NCBI GenBank assembly: GCA_963767925.1
Contig: CAVYGB010000008.1
Span: forward strand, 1,536,001 to 1,600,000
Direction: 5' to 3'
Source of the DNA: an uncultured delta proteobacterium
GTDB taxonomy: Bacteria; Myxococcota_A; Polyangia; Fen-1088
Length of the DNA stretch: 64,000 bases
Shown here: positions 3,548 through 32,651 of the stretch, piece after piece
Position numbering within the stretch: the stretch's first letter is position 1
Layout: each line of letters begins with the position of its first letter
Notes under the pieces: generated by a model
Database searches by the model: none
Told to the model about the DNA's origin: nothing
The model's input: only the letters and a program-made list of their open reading frames with translations
Program-made: the position numbers and the translations under genes

Positions 3548-4777
3548 TCAGGGCCTCGAGACCGGGACGGCGGTGCCGCCGAACGAGAGGTACGGGCAGG
3601 CCACCAGGATCTCGCTCGGATAGAGCACGTGCCCGAGGTGGCGCTCGATGGCGGCCTGCGAGTCCAGCCAGGGGCAGCGGGCCAGATCGGTCGCGGCGAG
3701 CGCCGCCGGCAAGCAGGTCTCGTCGAGCAAGACCTTGAAGGCGTGCTCGTCGAGCTCGGCGGCGGTGGCGACCAGCCCGGCGGGAGGCTCGACGGTCGGT
3801 GGACCCAGGCCCGCACCGCCGTTACGGGTCTCCCACTCGGCGCGGCGCTCGCGGGGCACGAACACGCGGGCGCTGGGCGGCAGGTGGACGGCGTGGAGCC
3901 GCCAGAGCGATCCGAACATCGGGCGATTTCCCGGGGCCAGGGGGACCCGGCCCGCGAACAGGGGCCCGGTGCCGCCCACCCGGGGGATTGTCGTGTGCGG
4001 CGCCCACTGCCCGGCGGCGTCGCGGCCGAAGAAGAAGAACAGCGGCTGCTCGATGACCTCGTCGCGCTCGTTGTATTCGAACCGGCTCGCTCCGAAGTCG
4101 AGGGCGAAGACCTCGGTGCCGTCGCGGTCCAGCCACCCGCTGCGGAGCTGGGGGCGGCCGATCCAATCGGGCGGGCGCAGCTTCGGCAGGAGAAAGCGGG
4201 TCGTCTCCTCGGGCCCCATCTCGGGACCCGGGAGCAGGGTGGCCAGCCGGGTGGGACCGGGGTGAAGGGGCAGCCGGGCGTCGAGGATCGCCCGCACCGA
4301 CCGGTACCGGTCGGGCGGGGTTTCGGCCGGAACCTGCACGTAGGTGACCCGGTGAAAGGGGCTCCAGAAGGGGCTCTCGGACCCGACGCTGAACACCCAG
4401 GGCAGGTCCAGCAGGTGCGCCTCGGGCGCCTCGGCGTTCCAGTCCGAGACGAACAGATAGAGGGGTTGCACCCAGATCACCGGGAAGTTCACCCAGACGT
4501 CGGTGGTCATGTAGGCGGTCTGCTCGCCCTGGGTGTAGGCCGGCGCCACCCGGATCTGGGTGGGCGAGGCGAGGAAGTAGGACGGAGGGAACCCCCCGGT
4601 GAACACCCGCGAGAGCCCGACGCCGAACGGCTGGTCGGAGTCGGCCTGGTAGGCGGCCTGCAAGCTGGACAGGGTCACCACCGCGGCGGACGGCCGGTCG
4701 GACGGCGGGACCTGGCAGGCCGATAGCAGCGCCGCCAGCAGGACCCCGGCGCTCGCGGTCGAGGCGGGGCGGCTCAT
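3548..4777 (-). CDS. Hypothetical lipoprotein
   Basis: ATG at 4777 overlaps upstream TGA (ATGA); lipobox 'LLSAC'; two related 'WSPFHRV'/'FGSLWRL' segments. Confidence 0.7.
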   Translation of the reverse strand: MSRPASTASAGVLLAALLSACQVPPSDRPSAAVVTLSSLQAAYQADSDQPFGVGLSRVFTGGFPPSYFLASPTQIRVAPAYTQGEQTAYMTTDVWVNFPVIWVQPLYLFVSDWNAEAPEAHLLDLPWVFSVGSESPFWSPFHRVTYVQVPAETPPDRYRSVRAILDARLPLHPGPTRLATLLPGPEMGPEETTRFLLPKLRPPDWIGRPQLRSGWLDRDGTEVFALDFGASRFEYNERDEVIEQPLFFFFGRDAAGQWAPHTTIPRVGGTGPLFAGRVPLAPGNRPMFGSLWRLHAVHLPPSARVFVPRERRAEWETRNGGAGLGPPTVEPPAGLVATAAELDEHAFKVLLDETCLPAALAATDLARCPWLDSQAAIERHLGHVLYPSEILVACPYLSFGGTAVPVSRP

Positions 4778-22594: not shown

Positions 22595-22622
22595 AGTTGA
22601 CATAATATCTCTTATCGGACAC
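22595..22622 (-). other. dif: dif / XerCD recombination site
   Basis: Minus strand reads GTGTCCGATAA-GAGATA-TTATGTCAACT: 11-bp XerC arm, 6-bp spacer, 11-bp XerD arm (E. coli dif is GGTGCGCATAA-TGTATA-TTATGTTAAAT); AT-rich patch in intergenic DNA. Confidence 0.85.
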
Positions 22623-22686
22623 CTCGACTGTGGCAGCTAAGTAAGGAATGTCCGCGTAAGCGTCGCGTCAGATACAAGCGGCGGGC

Positions 22687-23862
22687 ATGGAGAAGCCCCC
22701 GGAGCTGGTCACGATGAGCACGAAAGAGATCGACCGGCTGGAGGTCATTCGGCGCGTGCTGGAGCACGGTCTCAAGCGAAGGAAGGCGGCTCAGCTGCTC
22801 GGAATCACGAGCCGGCAGGTGTGGCGGCTGTGCGAGACGTACAAGAGCGAAGGCCCAGCTGGGCTGGCGTCGAAGCGCCGAGGCCGTCCCAGCAATCGCC
22901 GCCTGTGGCAGGACCTGGAGAAGCGAACCGTCGAGCTCGTCCGAGAGCTATACGGCGACTTCGGGCCGACGCTGGCCCGGGAAGGCACCAACGGGCTCGG
23001 CCAGGGCGTGACCCAGTTCGGGCGGGCCCTGTCGGAGCTCAACATCGACAGCATCTGCGCGAACACGCCTCAGGCCAAAGGCCGGGTCGAGCGGATGAAT
23101 TCAACGCTGCAAGACCGGCTGGTGAAGAAGCTGCGCCTCCAGGGCATCAGCACCATGGAGGCCGGCAACGCCTTCGCGCCCAAGTACATGGAGGACTTCA
23201 ACCGCCGATTCGCCAAGCCGCCCCGCAACCCGCACGACGCGCACCGCCCCGTCGACGAAAAGGTGCTCGAGGACGTCTTTGCCTGGCGCGAGGAGCGCCG
23301 AATGACCCGCAATCTCGTTGTCCACTTCAAGCGCGTCTCGTACCTGGTCGAGCCGACACCCGAAGCGCTGAAACTCGGGGGCCAGAAGGTGCAGGTTCGC
23401 GAGTGGCAGGACTGGAGTGTCGAGATCAGCTGCGATGGAGTCCCCCTGCCCTACGCGGCCGTTGACAAGCAGCCTCACGTCGCGCCCGGGGACATCGTCG
23501 ACAATAAGCGCCTCGGCGCCATCCTCGTGACGATCCAGGACATGCAGACGAAGCGGGACGAGGCGCGACTCGCCTCGCCGAAGGTGAAGCTTGCGGACAA
23601 GGAGCGGCTCCGGGCCAAGCGCCTCGCCATGCTCAAGGAGAAGGCCTTGAAGGCCAAGGAGCCTCGACCCGCGCATCCTCCCAAGGTGGTGCGGCCCGAG
23701 CGAATCACGCTCGCTGGCGTCGACCCCAACAGCCCAGTTCAAGCGTTCCTCGATCGGTTCGCCGTCGAGCAGGCCGAGCGCCGGCGCAAGTACAACGAGG
23801 CGGGCAACGACCGCACGCGGGCCCGTGAGTTCATGGACGCACGCAGTCGACCGACCAGCTGA
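22687..23862 (+). pseudogene. ISNCY/IS1202-family transposase with in-frame deletion of the catalytic core
   Basis: HTH N-terminus 'MSTKEIDRLEVIRRV...SKRRGRPSNRR', then 'FGPTLARE' joined straight to 'GVTQFGRAL...PQAKGRVERMNSTLQDRL'; the usual 'QIDGS...DDAT...YSD' segment is absent. Confidence 0.85.
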
Positions 23863-23902
23863 GCAGTCGGAGGCCTGGCCAACCTTCGATGAGGCCACCA
23901 AA

Positions 23903-23970
23903 TGTGATCACCACTGGTTCGACTCTCGCGGGCCGGCGTGCGCTCTGCGCGTCTCTGTCGACGACGCAAA
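23903..23970 (+). pseudogene. Degenerate fragment of an IS1202-type transposase catalytic region
   Basis: Translates as 'CDHHWFDSRGPACALRVSVDDAKT', matching the family motif H-x-W-F-E-x-R-G-P-x-C-x-L-x-V-x-V-D-D-A-T. Confidence 0.7.
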
Positions 23971-24194
23971 GACGGAGTCGGCGTTTGCGCATCTCGGTCA
24001 TCGCGAACGCCGCGATCGGAGCATCGAGGACGGAGCGATCGGACCATTGTGAATGGGGGTCTGGTTGGAGCGAAGCGACGCTGAGAAGCGGACGTCTCTA
24101 CTTTAGCCGTAACAGACATGTAATAGCCGAAAGTGTACCTTTTACCCACTGTGCCCGTCCCCCCCCCCGGCTCGGAGTGACCAGGAACGCAACC

Positions 24195-26621
24195 ATGATG
24201 AACGACCTGCGCTACGCTTTTCGCCAGCTCGTCCGCGCGCCCGGCTTCTCGGCGCTCGCGCTTCTGACCATCGCCCTCGGCATCGGCGCCTGCACGGCCA
24301 TCTTCTCGGTGGTCTCGGGCGTGCTGCTGCGGCCGCTGCCCTATCCGGAATCCGACCGCCTGGTGGTGGTCCGCGAGACCAACTTTCCCAAGTTGCCCGA
24401 GTTCTCGGTGGCGCCGGGACAGTACTTTTCCTGGGTCGCGCAGTCTCGCAGCTGGGAGAGCCTCACCGCGGTCCGCCGCGCCTCCTACAACCTGACCGGA
24501 CGGGGCGAGCCTCAGCGGCTCCTGGGTCGCCGCGTGACCGCGAACTTTCTGCGCACGTTGCGGGTGGCGCCAGCGCTGGGGCGGGATCTCTCCCCCGAGG
24601 ACGAGGTGCCGGGTCACGAGCGGGTAGCCATCGTTAGTCACGGTTTCTGGCAGCGGCAGTTCGGCGGCCGGCCCGATGTGCTGGGGCAGACCATGCAGCT
24701 GGACGGTCAGCCGTTCACGATCGTGGGGGTCATGCCCGCCTCGTTTGGCTGGGTCGGGAAGGGCGTCGTGCCGCAGCCGGGCGCCCGCGCCGACCTCTAC
24801 ACGCCCGCCGCCTACACCGCCGACGAGCGCGGGCAACACGGGGCCCACTACATCGGCGTGTTCGGCCGCCTCAAGACGGGCGTCACCCTCGATCAGGCCC
24901 GCGCCGAAATGACGGTCATCGCCGATCGTCTGGCCAAGCAGCTCCCCGACACCAACAAGGGCTGGGGGGTAAAGCTGACGCCGATGCTGGAATCGGACGT
25001 GGGCGAAGCGCGGCCGGTGCTGCTGGCGCTCCTGGGCGCGGTCGGCTTTCTGCTCCTCATCGCCTGCGCCAACGTCGCCAACCTGCTCCTGATGCGGGCC
25101 ACGGCCCGCAGCAAGGAGATCGCCGTCCGGGGCGCTCTCGGCGCCGGACGCGCCCGGATCGTGCAACAGCTGCTCACCGAGAGCGTGGTGCTGTCACTGC
25201 TGGGCGGGCTGCTCGGGCTGGCCGTGGCCAAGGGCGGGCTGGGCGCGCTGCTGGCGCTCGCGTCGGAGACCCTGCCGCGCGCCGGTGAGGTCTCGGTCGA
25301 CCTGAGCGCGCTCGGTTTTTCAGTCGGGCTCGCTCTGATCACCGGCGTCATCTTCGGGCTGGTGCCCGCCGTCCAGATCACCCGCCTGGACCTGCAGCAG
25401 ACCCTGAAGCAGGGCGGGCGCGGTTCCACCGAGGGCGTCGCCCGGCACCGCCTGCACGGCGCACTGGTGGTCGCGGAGCTAGCCATCGCCCTGGTGCTGC
25501 TGGTCGGTGCCGGCCTGCTGATGCGCAGCTTCGTGCACCTGCAGCGGGTCGACGTTGGCTTCCGTCCGGAGAACGCCTTCGCCGTCGCCCTGCAATTGTC
25601 CGAGAAGAAATACGAGACCCCCTCGCAGAAAGTGTCCTTCGAGCAGCAGGCCAGCCGACGCCTGGCGGCTATCCCGGGCGTGTCGGCCGTGGGCGCCGCC
25701 CACGTGGTCCCGCTTTCGGGACCGGACCACAACCTAATCTTCACGATCAAGGGCCAGCCGCCCATCGCCCCGTCGGATCTACCGAGCACCAACTATTACG
25801 CCGCCAGCGGCGGCTACTTCCAGGCGATGGGCATCGGTCTCGTGCGCGGGCGCTTCTTTGCTGGCACCGACACCGCCGCTTCGGAGCCGGTGGCCATCAT
25901 CAACGAATCGATGTCCCGCAAGCATTTCCCGGGTGAAGATCCGATCGGCAGGTTCATCAATGTCACGGGCGATTCCGACAAGTGGCTGCGGATCGTCGGC
26001 GTCGTCCGGGACGTGCGCCAGTACGACCTGCACAGTGACGTCACTGAGCAGACGTACGAACCGCTGGCTCAGAACCCATTCGAGCTCCTGACGTTCATCG
26101 TGCGCACCTCCGGCGGCAGCGCCGGCCTGCCCGCCGCCATCCGCCGCGCCATGTACGACGTGGACCGCGACCAGCCGATCGCCACCATCCGTCCGCTGCA
26201 GGAACTGGTGGACGGAGCGATGGCCCGCCAGCGCTTCGCCACGTCGCTGTTCTCGGTCTTCTCGGCCACGGCGCTGCTACTCGCCGCCATCGGCATCTAC
26301 GGGGTGATGGCCTATTCCGTGCGCCTGCGGACCGGCGAGATCGGGGTACGCATCGCCCTCGGCGCCGGCAGCGGCGACGTCCTGGGCCTGGTCTTTCGCC
26401 AGGGCGGCCGCCTGCTGGCGCTTGGGCTGGCCGCGGGGATCGCGGGTGCGCTGGTGCTGACCCGCGTCCTCTCGACCCTCTTCTTCGGCGTCAGCGCCCA
26501 CGACCCGCTCACCTTCGCCGCCATCGCCGCGCTCCTCACCGTCACCGCCGCCCTGGCCTGCCTCTTCCCCGCCCGCCGGGCGATCGCCATCGATCCCATG
26601 ACCGCCTTGCGGTCGGAGTGA
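24195..26621 (+). CDS. ADOP-type duplicated ABC permease (MacB/FtsX family)
   Basis: 'DLRYAFRQL..PGF', 'LLIACANVANLLL', 'EIAVRGALGA', 'GIYGVMAYSV', C-terminal 'DPMTALRSE'. Confidence 0.92.
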   Translation: MMNDLRYAFRQLVRAPGFSALALLTIALGIGACTAIFSVVSGVLLRPLPYPESDRLVVVRETNFPKLPEFSVAPGQYFSWVAQSRSWESLTAVRRASYNLTGRGEPQRLLGRRVTANFLRTLRVAPALGRDLSPEDEVPGHERVAIVSHGFWQRQFGGRPDVLGQTMQLDGQPFTIVGVMPASFGWVGKGVVPQPGARADLYTPAAYTADERGQHGAHYIGVFGRLKTGVTLDQARAEMTVIADRLAKQLPDTNKGWGVKLTPMLESDVGEARPVLLALLGAVGFLLLIACANVANLLLMRATARSKEIAVRGALGAGRARIVQQLLTESVVLSLLGGLLGLAVAKGGLGALLALASETLPRAGEVSVDLSALGFSVGLALITGVIFGLVPAVQITRLDLQQTLKQGGRGSTEGVARHRLHGALVVAELAIALVLLVGAGLLMRSFVHLQRVDVGFRPENAFAVALQLSEKKYETPSQKVSFEQQASRRLAAIPGVSAVGAAHVVPLSGPDHNLIFTIKGQPPIAPSDLPSTNYYAASGGYFQAMGIGLVRGRFFAGTDTAASEPVAIINESMSRKHFPGEDPIGRFINVTGDSDKWLRIVGVVRDVRQYDLHSDVTEQTYEPLAQNPFELLTFIVRTSGGSAGLPAAIRRAMYDVDRDQPIATIRPLQELVDGAMARQRFATSLFSVFSATALLLAAIGIYGVMAYSVRLRTGEIGVRIALGAGSGDVLGLVFRQGGRLLALGLAAGIAGALVLTRVLSTLFFGVSAHDPLTFAAIAALLTVTAALACLFPARRAIAIDPMTALRSE

Positions 26622-26699
26622 GGACGGTCATGGCGGGCGGGCGCCTCGCTCGGGACCACTATGATCGTCCCCGCCGTCGTAGGAGGCCGGAGCCGACCC

Positions 26700-26900
26700 C
26701 ATGAACCGGCCAAGCGCCGCGGCCGGCCTCCCAAGGATGCCTCCCGAGTCGTTCTCGCCGGCGTGGACCCTCGCGGCCCCGTCCAAGCGTTCCTCGATCG
26801 CTTCGCCGTCGAACAGGCAGAGCGTCGAAGGAAACAAAACACCAAGAGCAACGATCGGAAGCTTGAGCGGGAGTTTGCTGCTGCCAAAGCCCGCGGCTCA
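26700..26900 (+). pseudogene. Second, diverged copy of the transposase C-terminal tail
   Basis: 'RVVLAGVDPRGPVQAFLDRFAVEQAERRRK' versus 'RITLAGVDPNSPVQAFLDRFAVEQAERRRK' at about 23700-23790. Confidence 0.8.
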
Positions 26901-27018
26901 GAACGGCACCCCCTCGGTGCGGCGCTGCTGACCCACAAGGACGCGTCGCATCCATGACCGGGGCATGACGACGATTTTCTGGAACCCGCGGGCGGGGTGC
27001 TGCGTGAAAGAGGCGAAA

Positions 27019-27621
27019 ATGGTGACGCTCCAGCCCACGGCCGACGCGCCCGGCGCGTCCGGTGAGCTCGACGAGATCACCCTCGCGCGCGCGCAGAAGG
27101 GGGAGCGGGTGGCGTGGGCCGCGCTGGTCGCGCACCACCAGGGCGCGGTCTTTGCGCTGATCTCTCGCATCCTCGGCCGCCGCCGCGGCAGCGCGGCCCA
27201 TCAGGACCTGGCGCAAGAGACGTTCCTGCGCGTATTCCGCGCCCTGCCCACCTTCGAGCGCAGGGGGCCGGCCCGGCTGTCGACCTGGATCCTGACCATC
27301 GCGACGCGGCTGGCCATCTCCGAGCTGCGGCGCCGACCGGTGGAGTACCTGCTGCCCGTCGACGTCGCCGATCCGGCGGCGCCGGACGACGGCGGCGCCG
27401 CGCGGCGCGGGCTGGCGCGGGCGCTGGAGAAAGCGATGGGCGAGCTGGCCGCGCCCTACCGCGCAGCCTTCGTGCTGCGCGAGCTGCACGATCTGTCACA
27501 CGAGGAGATCGCGAGGGCGCTGGACATTCCGGTAGGCACGGTCAAGTCGCGCCTGTCGCGCGCGCGGCAGGAGCTGGCGTCGGCGCTGCGCGATCTCGAG
27601 GGAGGCGGCAAGCATGGCTGA
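27019..27621 (+). CDS. ECF RNA polymerase sigma factor
   Basis: 'DLAQETFLRVFRAL', 'LSTWILTIA', 'LSHEEIA...GTVKSRLSRAR'. Confidence 0.92.
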   Translation: MVTLQPTADAPGASGELDEITLARAQKGERVAWAALVAHHQGAVFALISRILGRRRGSAAHQDLAQETFLRVFRALPTFERRGPARLSTWILTIATRLAISELRRRPVEYLLPVDVADPAAPDDGGAARRGLARALEKAMGELAAPYRAAFVLRELHDLSHEEIARALDIPVGTVKSRLSRARQELASALRDLEGGGKHG

Positions 27622-28999
27622 TAAGCCGACGGACGACGGTCTCGACCCCCGCTACCGCGAGGTGTGGAGGCCGGCGGCACCGCCGACGGGCTTCGTCGAT
27701 CGCGTGCTCGCGCTGACGGACGCCGAGGGGAGCGTGGCGGCGCGCAAGCGGCGATCGCTGTTCGGGCGCGGCGCCATCGCGATGGCGGTGCTGGCGGCGG
27801 CCGCCGCTCTGGTCATCGGCTATCGGCCGCGCGCGCGCGAGGGGGAGCATTTGGCGACGACCGCCCGCCTCTCGGTCCCGATCACCGAGCAAGCGGCGGC
27901 CGTGCTCGAGCCGCGCGCGCACCTGCGCTGGCGGTCGGCCGACGGTCGCGTGACCGTCGAGCAGGACGCCGGCGAGGTCTTTTATCGCGTCGACCGCGGC
28001 GTGGCCTTCGAGGTGAAGACGGCGGCGGGGTCGGTGCTGGTGAAGGGAACCTGTTTCAAAGTGGAGGTGAACGCGATGAGCCCGATTACTCACACTCTCA
28101 TCGGCGTCGTGTCGGGCATCGCGATCACCGCGTTGGCGGTGACGGTGTATGAAGGGATGGTCGAGGTGCACAACGAGCGCGGCGAGACCCGCCTCGGCCC
28201 GGGCGACCGCGGCGTGGCCGAGCCGGGCCAGGCCCCGACCGTGGCCCGGCCTGCGGGCGCCGCGCGGGCGAGCAACGTCCTCCGCCTGAGCGACGCGACT
28301 CTGGCGGCGCTCGGCGCGGACACGCGCGCCACCATCGCGGCCCTCGAGCAGAAGGCGGCGGCCCTCTCGTCCGAGCTGGCGGAGGCGCGGCGCCTGGTGC
28401 TGGAGGGGCCGCCCGACGAGGACGGCATCCCCAAGAAGAAGATTCACGACTTCACGCCCGAGGAGCTGGCCGTTCTCGCCCGTCGCTGCGAGATCCGCTA
28501 CGACGTGCCCAAGTTCCTCAGCAACGGCCGGATCGAGCTCAGAGGCCTTGGCGAGGCCAGCAACGGCATCAGCGAGGCGCAGGTGGCGCAGCTCAATCAG
28601 CACCTGCGGGAGTTCGCGCCCGACAACCTGGACCGCCTGCGCGCACTCTACCGGGAAGGGACAGGCGATCACGTCGGCGCCGCGACGCTGGCTCCGAAGG
28701 TCATGACGCAGGCCCTCTTCAAGCGCTACCCGCACGAGCTCGACCGCGCCCAGCAGCGTCTGTCGCTGGAGCGCGCTGGGCAGCCGGCGCCGCCGCCTGA
28801 TCCCGGCGGACCGAGCGTGGTCGAACGGCTGCTGCGATTGATCTTCGCCGCCGGCGACGAGTTGGAGCGACGGGGCGCGCAGGTGCTCGGCGCCGAGCGC
28901 ACCCACGAGCTGCGCCGCACGGGCGCAGGCTACGAGCCCGGCCTCATCCAGTATGGCTGCCCGAATGGTTCGACCTCGCGAATACTCGGCGCAGAGTAG
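27614..28999 (+). CDS. FecR-domain anti-sigma factor
   Basis: Overlaps the sigma gene stop; TM helix; 'GEVFYRV..FEVKT..GSVLVKGTCFKVEV', 'VTVYEGMVEV'. Confidence 0.8.
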   Translation: MADKPTDDGLDPRYREVWRPAAPPTGFVDRVLALTDAEGSVAARKRRSLFGRGAIAMAVLAAAAALVIGYRPRAREGEHLATTARLSVPITEQAAAVLEPRAHLRWRSADGRVTVEQDAGEVFYRVDRGVAFEVKTAAGSVLVKGTCFKVEVNAMSPITHTLIGVVSGIAITALAVTVYEGMVEVHNERGETRLGPGDRGVAEPGQAPTVARPAGAARASNVLRLSDATLAALGADTRATIAALEQKAAALSSELAEARRLVLEGPPDEDGIPKKKIHDFTPEELAVLARRCEIRYDVPKFLSNGRIELRGLGEASNGISEAQVAQLNQHLREFAPDNLDRLRALYREGTGDHVGAATLAPKVMTQALFKRYPHELDRAQQRLSLERAGQPAPPPDPGGPSVVERLLRLIFAAGDELERRGAQVLGAERTHELRRTGAGYEPGLIQYGCPNGSTSRILGAE

Positions 29000-29236
29000 A
29001 CGACGAGCGATCCTCCTGCCGCGCGGCAGCCGGCCCGGCGATGGTAGTACCAGGCGCAGCGCCACGCCATGGCCGCGAGCAGCAGCAGCCAGAGGACGTA
29101 GATGCCGAGGAGGCCGGTCTTGTGGCGCACGATCGCGGCGGCGAGGCCGAGGGCGTAGAAGGGACGAGGTGGAACAAGAAGGGGACGCGGCCGAAGATCG
29201 GAGCGTGGGCGAACACACTAGCCAGTCTCCCAACCG

Positions 29237-29284
29237 GACATTTCAACTTTGCTCAGAAGCAGACATTTCAACTTTGCCGTGACA
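29237..29284 (+). mobile_element. IS1202-type right end (two 16-bp GACATTTCAACTTTGC repeats, terminal ACA)
   Basis: Exact repeats at 29237-29252 and 29262-29277; reverse complement TGTCACGGCAAAGTTGAAATGTCTGC resembles the left end at 22629. Confidence 0.8.
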
Positions 29285-31724: not shown

Positions 31725-32648
31725 GTGTCGCTCCACACGAAGATCATCGGACGCCAGAGCGGGATCTGCCTCTACGGCCTGGCGCCGCCCAAGCGGGCCA
31801 CGGCCGCCGCCGAGATGGAGGTAATCGCCGCCCAGCAGGAGGCGAGGCTGGGGTCGCTGGGATTGGATGGTCTCATCATCTACGAGCTCCAGGACGAGGC
31901 CGAGCGAACCTCGGAGCCCCGCCCTTTCCCGTTCCTCCCTACCGTCGATCCGCTCGCGTATGCGCATCAGCACCTCGGGCGCCTGGCGGTGCCCAAGATT
32001 GTCTACCGCTGCGTTAGCCGCGACACTGCCGCAGGCCTCGTGGGCTGGCTCCAGCAGCCGCGCCCGGCGTCGTCCCAGCTGTCGGTGCTGGTCGGCGCGG
32101 CCAGCCGGCACGCGCCCGCGAGCCTGCGGCTGACCGAGGCATACGCGCTAGCCCGACAGCATGCACCTGCGCATGTGCTTGGCGGCATCGCCATCGCCGA
32201 GCGCCACGCGCGCACCGGCGACGAGCACGAGCGCATCCTCGCCAAGACCGAGGCGGGCTGCCGCTTCTTCGTCACCCAGGCGGTCTACGATGTGACCGCC
32301 ACGAAATCACTCCTGTCCGACTACGCGCTCGCCACCCGCCGGTCCGGCGTCGAGCCAGTGCCAATCATTCTCACGTTTTCCCCCTGCGGTTCCGCGAAGA
32401 CGCTGGCCTTCATGCAGTGGCTGGGAATTGCCTTTCCGCGGTGGCTCGAGAACGAGTTGCGCCACGCGCCCGATCCGCTGGCGACCTCGGTGGGCCTGTG
32501 CGAGAAGATCTATGCCGAGGCGTGGGAGTACGCCCGCGACAAGGGACTCCCGCTGGGAGTGAACGTCGAAAGCGTGTCGATCCGAAAGGCGGAGATCGAG
32601 GCGTCGGTCGAGTTGTTCCGTCGGCTGCGCGCCCTGATGAGCCGGTAA
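31725..32648 (+). CDS. Methylenetetrahydrofolate reductase-like protein
   Basis: 'LYGLAPPK', 'YELQDE..R...PRPFPF', 'GCRFFVTQAVYD', 'NVESVSIRKAEIEAS'. Confidence 0.8.
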   Translation: MSLHTKIIGRQSGICLYGLAPPKRATAAAEMEVIAAQQEARLGSLGLDGLIIYELQDEAERTSEPRPFPFLPTVDPLAYAHQHLGRLAVPKIVYRCVSRDTAAGLVGWLQQPRPASSQLSVLVGAASRHAPASLRLTEAYALARQHAPAHVLGGIAIAERHARTGDEHERILAKTEAGCRFFVTQAVYDVTATKSLLSDYALATRRSGVEPVPIILTFSPCGSAKTLAFMQWLGIAFPRWLENELRHAPDPLATSVGLCEKIYAEAWEYARDKGLPLGVNVESVSIRKAEIEASVELFRRLRALMSR

Positions 32649-32651
32649 TAC

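Follow-up and report, generated by a model that had tools for sequence, protein, structure and literature searches.

A probable graveyard of dif-targeting IS1202-family insertion sequences, with intact genes wedged between its parts, in an uncultured soil bacterium of the class Polyangia

A stretch of 64,000 nucleotides from an uncultured delta proteobacterium (Myxococcota_A, Polyangia, Fen-1088; GenBank assembly GCA_963767925.1, contig CAVYGB010000008.1, positions 1,536,001 to 1,600,000 of the forward strand; hereafter "the window") contains a chromosomal dif site whose XerC side is probably a graveyard of dif-targeting insertion sequences (IS) of the IS1202 family, with intact genes wedged between the dead parts. 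Read outward from dif (Table 1), the flank holds a dead element with both ends, a gene for an ADOP duplicated permease, the tail of a second transposase gene, a pair of genes for an ECF sigma factor and a FecR-like putative anti-sigma protein, and a two-site IS right end. The stacking of same-orientation relics on the XerC side of dif is supported by the anatomy of the window and by the dif loci of related genomes, and it extends behavior already published for the ISAba32/ISAjo2 subgroup of the family to a high-GC soil lineage. Whether the intact genes arrived inside the elements is weighed separately for each gene.

The dif site

The 28-mer at 22595-22622 is, as judged from its sequence, the chromosomal dif site, at which binding and cleavage by XerCD are predicted. 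Its layout, near-single-copy occurrence, conservation and terminus position and the presence of a Xer recombinase gene are all those of a chromosomal dif, and which arm is XerD and which is XerC was decided by comparison with the tables of C and D arms in PMC10132070. The site is called real because it is unique in the genome (one core motif in 9.3 Mb, and the sole match to the arms in the window), because it recurs with up to three mismatches in 46 of the 89 genomes of the order, where the reversed sequence used as a control found no match, because it coincides with the turnover of the GC skew, and because XerD is encoded in the genome (338.5 bits against a curated cut-off of 329.6). The conserved site is single-copy in 44 of these 46 genomes and present twice in the other two (G059 and G061); in a narrower set of relatives it was found in 15 of 41, with one copy each. 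Along the 3.3-Mb contig that carries the window (C8), the cumulative GC skew has its maximum at 1.40 Mb, remains level as far as ~1.66 Mb and declines beyond it; dif, at 1.5586 Mb, lies on the level part, the plateau of the maximum.

Some elements integrate at dif by Xer recombination. Integration by that route, or as a dif module, finds no support at this locus: there is one dif-like site only, and no second one was found at the far boundary of the stack or anywhere else in the window or genome. The gene adjoining dif in the window encodes an FAD-monooxygenase; in the relative G015 this gene lies on the opposite side of dif, and elsewhere it lies on other contigs.

Table 1. Positions of the features at the dif locus, numbered from the first base of the window.
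Feature	Position	Strand	Description
Chromosomal dif	22595-22622	+	XerD arm AGTTGACATAA, spacer TATCTC, XerC arm TTATCGGACAC; 11-6-11 Xer layout
Gap CTCGAC	22623-22628	.	6 bp, XerC arm to IS left end
Proximal IS1202-family element	22629-24114	+	1486 bp, TGT...ACA, dead
Deleted transposase	22687-23862	+	391 aa; in-frame loss of ~123 residues, first part of catalytic core
Stray catalytic-core fragment	23903-23995	+	P0003 residues 144-184, 56% identity, E 4e-9 (tblastn); downstream of stop
98-bp interspersed repeat inside dead IS	23986-24083	+	Four other copies in the genome
Right inverted repeat, proximal element	24088-24114	-	Reverse complement TGTTACGGCTAAAGTAGAGACGTCCGC pairs with left end
Candidate vestige of older left end	24119-24135	+	TGTAATAGCCGAAAGTG; uncertain
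ADOP duplicated permease, intact	24195-26621	+	808 aa; TIGR03434
Second transposase C-terminal tail	26661-26957	+	Open to native stop; homology 26703-26906; 65-80 codons left
ECF sigma factor, intact	26965-27621	+	218 aa; Sigma70_r2, Sigma70_r4_2; TIGR02937
FecR-like putative anti-sigma protein, intact	27614-28999	+	461 aa; Pfam FecR 23.7 bits, cut-off 24
Outer right end	29237-29284	-	Identical 16-bp sites 29237-29252 and 29262-29277; terminal ACA at 29284

The dead elements beside dif

The proximal element begins with TGT at 22629, its left end facing the XerC arm across 6 bp (a gap of 5 or 6 bp in relatives), and closes with ACA at 24114, the two ends pairing at 18 of 27 bases. Its transposase matches the model NF033594 (ISNCY_2) in two stretches despite the internal deletion (258.7 bits, cut-off 250; E-value 8.9e-77). 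Alignment with homologues of 513-519 residues that share 66-69% identity places the missing segment at columns 101-223, approximately residues 91-212 of the 513-residue homologues, and a tblastn search with one homologue (P0003) recovers residues 1-90 at 72% identity and residues 210-507 at 68%; Pfam recognizes the N-terminal helix-turn-helix (HTH) domains only. The stray fragment downstream (translated as CDHHWFDSRGPACALRVSVDDAKTESAFAHLG, with a VDDA stretch) is degraded, lies on the same strand and falls within the stretch of core that the transposase has lost. Because this piece of core stands behind the stop codon, the simplest explanation is that the 1486-bp element is possibly two stacked copies fused by deletion. 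The transposase model and the TGT/ACA ends are those of the IS1202 family, whose terminal inverted repeats are imperfect and ~24-26 bp long. The DDE domain is not intact, and neither end of the proximal element shows an evident second, internal transposase-binding repeat, a feature that is clear at the outer right end. Both this copy and the outer one are relics of family members, not working members, and no further copy of the proximal transposase, intact or otherwise, was found in the genome.

The outer relic retains less. Its transposase tail is 63% identical to residues 444-508 of P0003 and 78% identical to residues 348-410 of a second homologue, P0037, and is 62.9% (protein) and 73% (nucleotide) identical to the tail of the proximal copy. 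By these comparisons the outer relic is a second IS species and not a local duplication, because its end register is one base off that of the proximal ends and its tail is nearer to P0037 than to the proximal copy. Its right end was scored with a position weight matrix built from 29 distinct ends of 17 relatives that carry exact 5-bp duplications; the end at 29284 reaches 31.6, rank 1 among the 113,380 TGT sites of the genome. The 16-bp site has two instances in the genome, both at this end, and the two-site layout recurs at the ends of relatives.

In ordinary members of the family the transposase stop almost abuts the right-end sites, whereas here 2.3 kb have been added between the two. The stop occupies 26955-26957, the ATG of the sigma gene (26965) lies 8 bp past it, the FecR-like gene overlaps the 3' end of the sigma gene, and its own stop lies 237 bp before the first right-end site (from 29237). 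Non-transposition genes between transposase stop and right end are a feature of passenger-carrying IS; the other marks of such an IS (two functional ends, a duplication and presence in more than one place) are lacking. The sequence leaves the passenger status of the sigma/FecR-like pair about evenly balanced: the reading is attractive because the pair sits exactly between a native transposase stop and a canonical right end, and because known passenger-carrying members of the family hold genes at the same position. The positive case for cargo is plausible and wholly anatomical.

Eight of the nine features listed in an initial annotation, made from the letters of the window before any database search, stand where it placed them. 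These are the left end, deleted transposase, stray catalytic fragment and right end of the proximal element (borne out by the end pairing, the NF033594 match and the tblastn hit), the ADOP gene (TIGR03434), the diverged transposase tail (63-78% identity), the sigma/FecR-like pair (Sigma70 domains) and the right end at 29284 with its two 16-bp repeats (first in rank among the TGT sites). The exception, a second left end at 24119, is considered below together with the ADOP gene.

The dif loci of related genomes

Occupation of the XerC flank is frequent in the order. A TGT end stands 5-6 bp past the XerC arm in 18 of the 38 readable dif loci, and 13 of the 38 pass the 99th-percentile motif score over the first 14 nucleotides. 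In most of these loci the left end stands alone: no transposase was found within 10-15 kb and no convincing right end in the 10-15 kb downstream of dif, in agreement with the partial copies that keep only the left end described in a recent preprint (bioRxiv 10.1101/2022.12.17.520857). In one genus, three members carry stubs truncated in almost the same way, and stubs common to a genus therefore appear to be inherited.

A second stack of this kind is present in a genome of another genus, G060 (locus L290, G060:C14:641200-656200). There, dif is followed after 5 bp by a left end and transposase residues 1-113, then outward by a GH53 hydrolase gene, an unknown frame, a GGDEF fragment, and finally a diverged left end with transposase residues 1-178; the two relics (34-457 and 3894-4533 from dif) point the same way and share 93% identity over 425 bp. 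In G001, a member of the same genus as the bacterium studied here, the dif flank has a left end followed by residues 1-88 of a transposase, a stub that leads into a different ECF sigma gene and a gene for an S41 peptidase. That sigma factor was considered as an orthologue of the one in the window and rejected (33% identity over 45 residues only). The transposase breakpoints of three independent relics are nearly alike, at residue ~90 in the window (22956), ~88 in G001 (locus L027, ~5145) and 113 in G060 (~457 from dif); a shared breakpoint just past the N-terminal HTH region may be a deletion hot spot or chance.

Relatives from other phyla (50-57% transposase identity) show what intact members of the group do. 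Their ends are TGT/ACA; of 66 copies delimited automatically, 17 are flanked by exact 5-bp duplications, and 8 of the 16 duplicated copies whose flanks are long enough to judge stand 5 bp away from a strict dif-like core. Closer to the window, five apparently intact copies were found in G003, G060 and G211, of the same family or class (L306, L309, L311, L330 and L331; 1442-2192 bp); 5-bp duplications flank L309, L311, L330 and L331. Three of the five (L306, L309 and L311) adjoin dif-like sequences and L330 adjoins a half-site, these being secondary sites with the TTATCGG part of the XerC arm; no dif-like sequence is evident upstream of L331.

A proposed history and its weight

The arrangement is most simply explained by elements that would insert with the left end toward the XerC arm and 5-6 bp away from it, so that, with the insertion point fixed, each new arrival would push earlier ones outward; the copies would then decay by internal deletions, and the piece next to dif would survive, presumably because a deletion reaching dif would be harmful. 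At least two arrivals, and probably three, would be recorded in the window. One is the proximal element, whose 3' part (core fragment and right end) is probably what is left of an earlier copy joined to it by deletion; another is the outer element, of which the last 65-80 transposase codons and the two-site right end remain and whose passengers the sigma/FecR-like pair would most simply have been. Published arrays contain tandem insertions at one site in which the copy nearest the site is the newest (bioRxiv 10.1101/2022.12.17.520857), a model that fits the order seen here and in relatives. The suggestion of the initial annotation that repeated insertion at one site moves older copies outward is accordingly sustained in its general form by the same-orientation stack, the 18 occupied loci and the G060 stack; the strict chronology that it drew from this is unverifiable because target duplications are absent. 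Its second suggestion, that cargo lies inside the outer element, holds for the position of the sigma/FecR-like pair and is unsupported for the ADOP gene.

Several results weigh against the more ambitious parts of this history. No target-site duplication was found at any of the three junctions (flanks CTCGAC, GACATG and GTCACG), as the initial annotation had also noted; this counts against a stack because in an undisturbed one every junction would be expected to carry the same 5-6 bp, as in a published four-copy ISKpn21 array (bioRxiv 10.1101/2022.12.17.520857). The outer unit has no second copy in its own genome (searched by transposase and by 16-bp end site), and a search of the order's 88 other genomes, in which the FecR-like protein has no match better than 38% identity, turned up no sibling with these genes between IS ends. 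A metagenome scan with the outer right-end 16-mer gave at least 122 stretches; among the 79 loci listed and examined, many had IS ends and 25 had transposase matches, and none held a relative of the sigma factor, the FecR-like protein or ADOP at an E-value of 1e-5, although the 16-mer is common to many IS species and the scan is therefore not specific to siblings. The intact copies of 1442-2192 bp have no room for multi-kilobase cargo. In G001, the nearest relative of the ADOP gene (76% nucleotide identity) stands on another contig than dif, a 7.7-kb contig that ends within the gene and carries a FecR-like gene (41%) and an ABC ATPase gene with no IS parts, so that the two kinds of gene may be neighbors for reasons unrelated to IS. 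Public sequencing runs speak neither to contiguity nor to presence or absence: 20 rows from 12 studies contain 11-16% of sampled words, and the four runs examined gave short contigs only, none of which spans a unit boundary.

The proposed older left end at 24119 belongs among these points. Its matrix score over 30 nucleotides is -9.1, and 16% of random TGT sites score at least as well; 72% of them reach the best identity that it has, ungapped, to known ends (9 of 17), and it has no inner binding site of the AAATGTCC type; over its first 14 nucleotides, 2.5% of random TGT sites do as well. Its position is what is unusual. Relatives with tandem arrays have the next left end 4-5 bp after a right end, and the probability of a TGT site this good 3-7 bp past a fixed point is 0.0007-0.0046, depending on the length used. 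To judge from its letters, the sequence is not a usable end; it may be a left-end vestige of 14-17 nucleotides, a possibility that we place somewhat short of an even chance. The left end that the initial annotation saw there was consequently not upheld, and neither was its idea that 24119-29284 is a non-autonomous, mobilizable carrier, since there is no inner left-end motif and no intact cognate transposase, second copy or sibling was found in the genome itself, the 88 related genomes or the 79 metagenome loci listed, as far as each was searched for it. Present-day mobility of the stack is unsupported by the sequence, and nothing in it appears mobile today because there is no functional transposase, no usable outer left end and no other copy.

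The ADOP gene, which lies after the proximal right end and before the outer transposase tail, is a complete member of its family (983.6 bits and E-value 7e-296 against TIGR03434, covering model positions 2-803 of 803; two MacB_PCD and two FtsX domains in Pfam), and the DNA upstream of it has no match elsewhere in its own genome. Its carriage as IS cargo is unsupported. It could have come as a passenger in an intermediate element that has since lost its IS parts by deletion, except perhaps for the 14-17-nucleotide vestige at 24119, or it could be the product of a later replacement. Two passenger-carrying elements, each having lost IS parts in one deletion, would fit the arrangement, and later replacement would fit it too.

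A possible, though clearly less probable, account is that neither the sigma/FecR-like pair nor the ADOP gene was ever borne by an IS, and that both came into IS debris that was already dead, through illegitimate or homologous recombination, or lie within debris that such events have split; the stack would then record arrivals of IS and not delivery of genes. The absence of a sibling cargo element and the small size of the intact copies speak for late entry, and so does the G012 genome, in which a sigma gene 93% identical in nucleotides is found 1.2 kb away from dif, its side and orientation matching those in the window, with no recognizable TGT end or transposase remnant before the contig ends 75 bp past the homology. 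Genes of this kind near dif without IS ends are what the initial annotation had named as evidence against its own reading; G012 supplies such a case, although its downstream side is unseen. The homologous tract (window 26955-27643 against G012:C142:6412-7099, 93%) is only 689 bp long, has sharp edges and starts at the transposase stop codon, and a second tract (window 32014-32650 against G012:C80:25852-26488, 94%, 637 bp) stands, like the first, on a background of 66-79% identity, which suggests short recombination tracts between lineages. Both tracts, however, lie at contig ends (75 and 139 bp away) and may reflect either recent exchange between genera or an assembly artefact with chimeric contig ends. 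Late entry would also have to strike exactly between the transposase stop and the inner right-end site while leaving both intact, and passenger genes at that very position are documented in the family (bioRxiv 10.1101/2022.12.17.520857).

It is improbable that the ADOP and sigma/FecR-like genes are native neighbors of dif among which IS pieces were scattered by inversions, deletions and recombination in the terminus, in which case distance from dif would say nothing of age. The terminus is heavily rearranged among relatives, as the moved FAD-monooxygenase gene shows, so much so that no relative was found in which the DNA beyond 29284 has its homologues next to dif, as an empty site would require; and the loss of duplications is ascribed in the literature to recombination between copies (bioRxiv 10.1101/2022.12.17.520857; PMC10132070). 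Inversions would nevertheless have flipped some of the IS parts, which all have one orientation and the natural order (left end, transposase, right end, tail, right end); the genome holds no other copy to recombine with; and the FecR-like gene, unlike a conserved neighbor, has no orthologue above 38% in the 88 relatives. A joining of IS fragments and genes from different places or strains by the assembler is very improbable. The genome is a 13-contig draft with an estimated contamination of 5%, IS copies are classic sites of assembly error, and no public contig bridged a junction, but the region lies inside the 3.3-Mb contig, its IS parts are single-copy and so offer no repeat to mis-join, and every component is matched in part by short contigs from soil runs (with 0-1 differences in X3 and 0-11 in X1), none of which has an alternative joint at the unit boundaries.

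Further observations at the locus

The 98-bp repeat inside the proximal element is made of subunits of ~22 bp (CATCGTGAACG..GCGATCGGA..). Two of its copies elsewhere in the genome are ~91% identical (C2:543687-543782 and C10:1846102-1846198) and two are shorter (C2:2144743-2144810 and C10:1843618-1843675), and there are partial matches in G019, where they lie at contig ends, and in G024 (G024:C3:5603-5671). Ten consecutive C at 24159-24168, 27 bp upstream of the ADOP start, form a possible slippage-prone tract. The FecR-like protein has paralogues in its own genome at 34% and 37% identity. In low-depth contigs from two soil runs (X1 and X5), position 28962 is joined to 29180, skipping the 217 bp (28963-29179) between the region of the FecR-like stop and the right end. 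Base composition was tried as a marker of the units and proved uninformative, at 62-75% G+C throughout. In a relative of the order (G069:C3, locus L280), a left-end stub is preceded by two copies, 6 bp apart, of the final 13 bases of dif (TGTTATCGGACAT), a partial duplication of the XerC arm.

Relation to known systems

According to the available text of two studies (bioRxiv 10.1101/2022.12.17.520857; PMC10132070), the ISAba32/ISAjo2 subgroup of the IS1202 family targets dif or dif-like sites in a fixed orientation and at a spacing of 5-6 bp. The target duplication of the subgroup is given as 5-6 bp, and as 3-5 bp by Harmer et al. (PMC10132070). The window shares with this subgroup its transposase family, its TGT/ACA ends (with a repeated inner site that is clear at the outer right end), a left end in one orientation 5-6 bp from the XerC arm, the presence of several elements at one site, of which the proximal one would be the latest arrival, and partial copies in which the left end is retained; the match is one of behavior, as analyzed here with the relatives at 50-57% identity included. 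In contrast to the published cases, the copies in the window are all dead, no 5-bp duplication survives and non-IS genes are interleaved, and the host is a high-GC soil bacterium rather than one of the Acinetobacter, Klebsiella, Burkholderia or rhizobial hosts of the subgroup.

A passenger gene is borne by 5 of 166 family members (bioRxiv 10.1101/2022.12.17.520857), and ISKpn21, ISKpn65, ISKpn63, ISRel10 and ISShal2 resemble the outer relic in having non-transposition genes inside the element, ISKpn21 also targeting dif-like sites. As described in that preprint, those elements are intact and multi-copy with a single hypothetical-protein passenger, whereas the window offers a 2.3-kb regulatory pair of two genes in one decayed copy, with carriage suggested by position only.

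Accessory genes also gather beside Xer sites in the dif modules (xrs cassettes) of Acinetobacter plasmids; in the accounts available, however, those modules are bounded by Xer sites and moved by XerCD, and the window has one dif-like site. A further likeness, as far as the available descriptions go, is to the piles of Tn7-like elements at attTn7 downstream of glmS, where successive insertions at a site-specific "safe haven" build an island. Tn7 needs dedicated targeting proteins, which these IS are without. The transposase of the IS is of the same broad TnsB-like type (PMC10132070). Among the matches listed in a full-text search for IS1202 and dif, no account of this lineage or of stacks with interleaved genes was found, the 166-element supplement of the preprint lying outside that search. 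The locus extends published behavior and is not a new kind of system; new here are the lineage and the frequency, with 13-18 of the 38 dif loci of the order occupied.

Implications

In the broadest view, the XerC flank of dif in this order would be a standing zone of gene accretion fed by dif-targeting IS1202-type elements, a generalization that we regard as rather unlikely. Elements would land at one fixed base, some of them with passengers, and would lose their transposition parts while a left-end stub and useful genes were kept, so that the flank could be read outward as an ordered record of arrivals. Three independent instances would then be at hand: the window (ADOP; ECF sigma and FecR-like genes), G001 (ECF sigma and S41 peptidase genes) and G060 (GH53 gene and GGDEF fragment). 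If the sigma/FecR-like pair did arrive as passengers, dif-hunting IS would move more than themselves, and regulatory and transport genes could be delivered to one predictable chromosomal address; the resulting ordered fossil record would help to date acquisitions and would inform ideas on site-directed gene delivery. As things stand, the value of the locus is mainly descriptive, in that dif targeting of the ISAba32/ISAjo2 type is extended to a high-GC soil lineage in which approximately a third to a half of the examined dif sites bear an IS stub, those shared within a genus appearing to be inherited.

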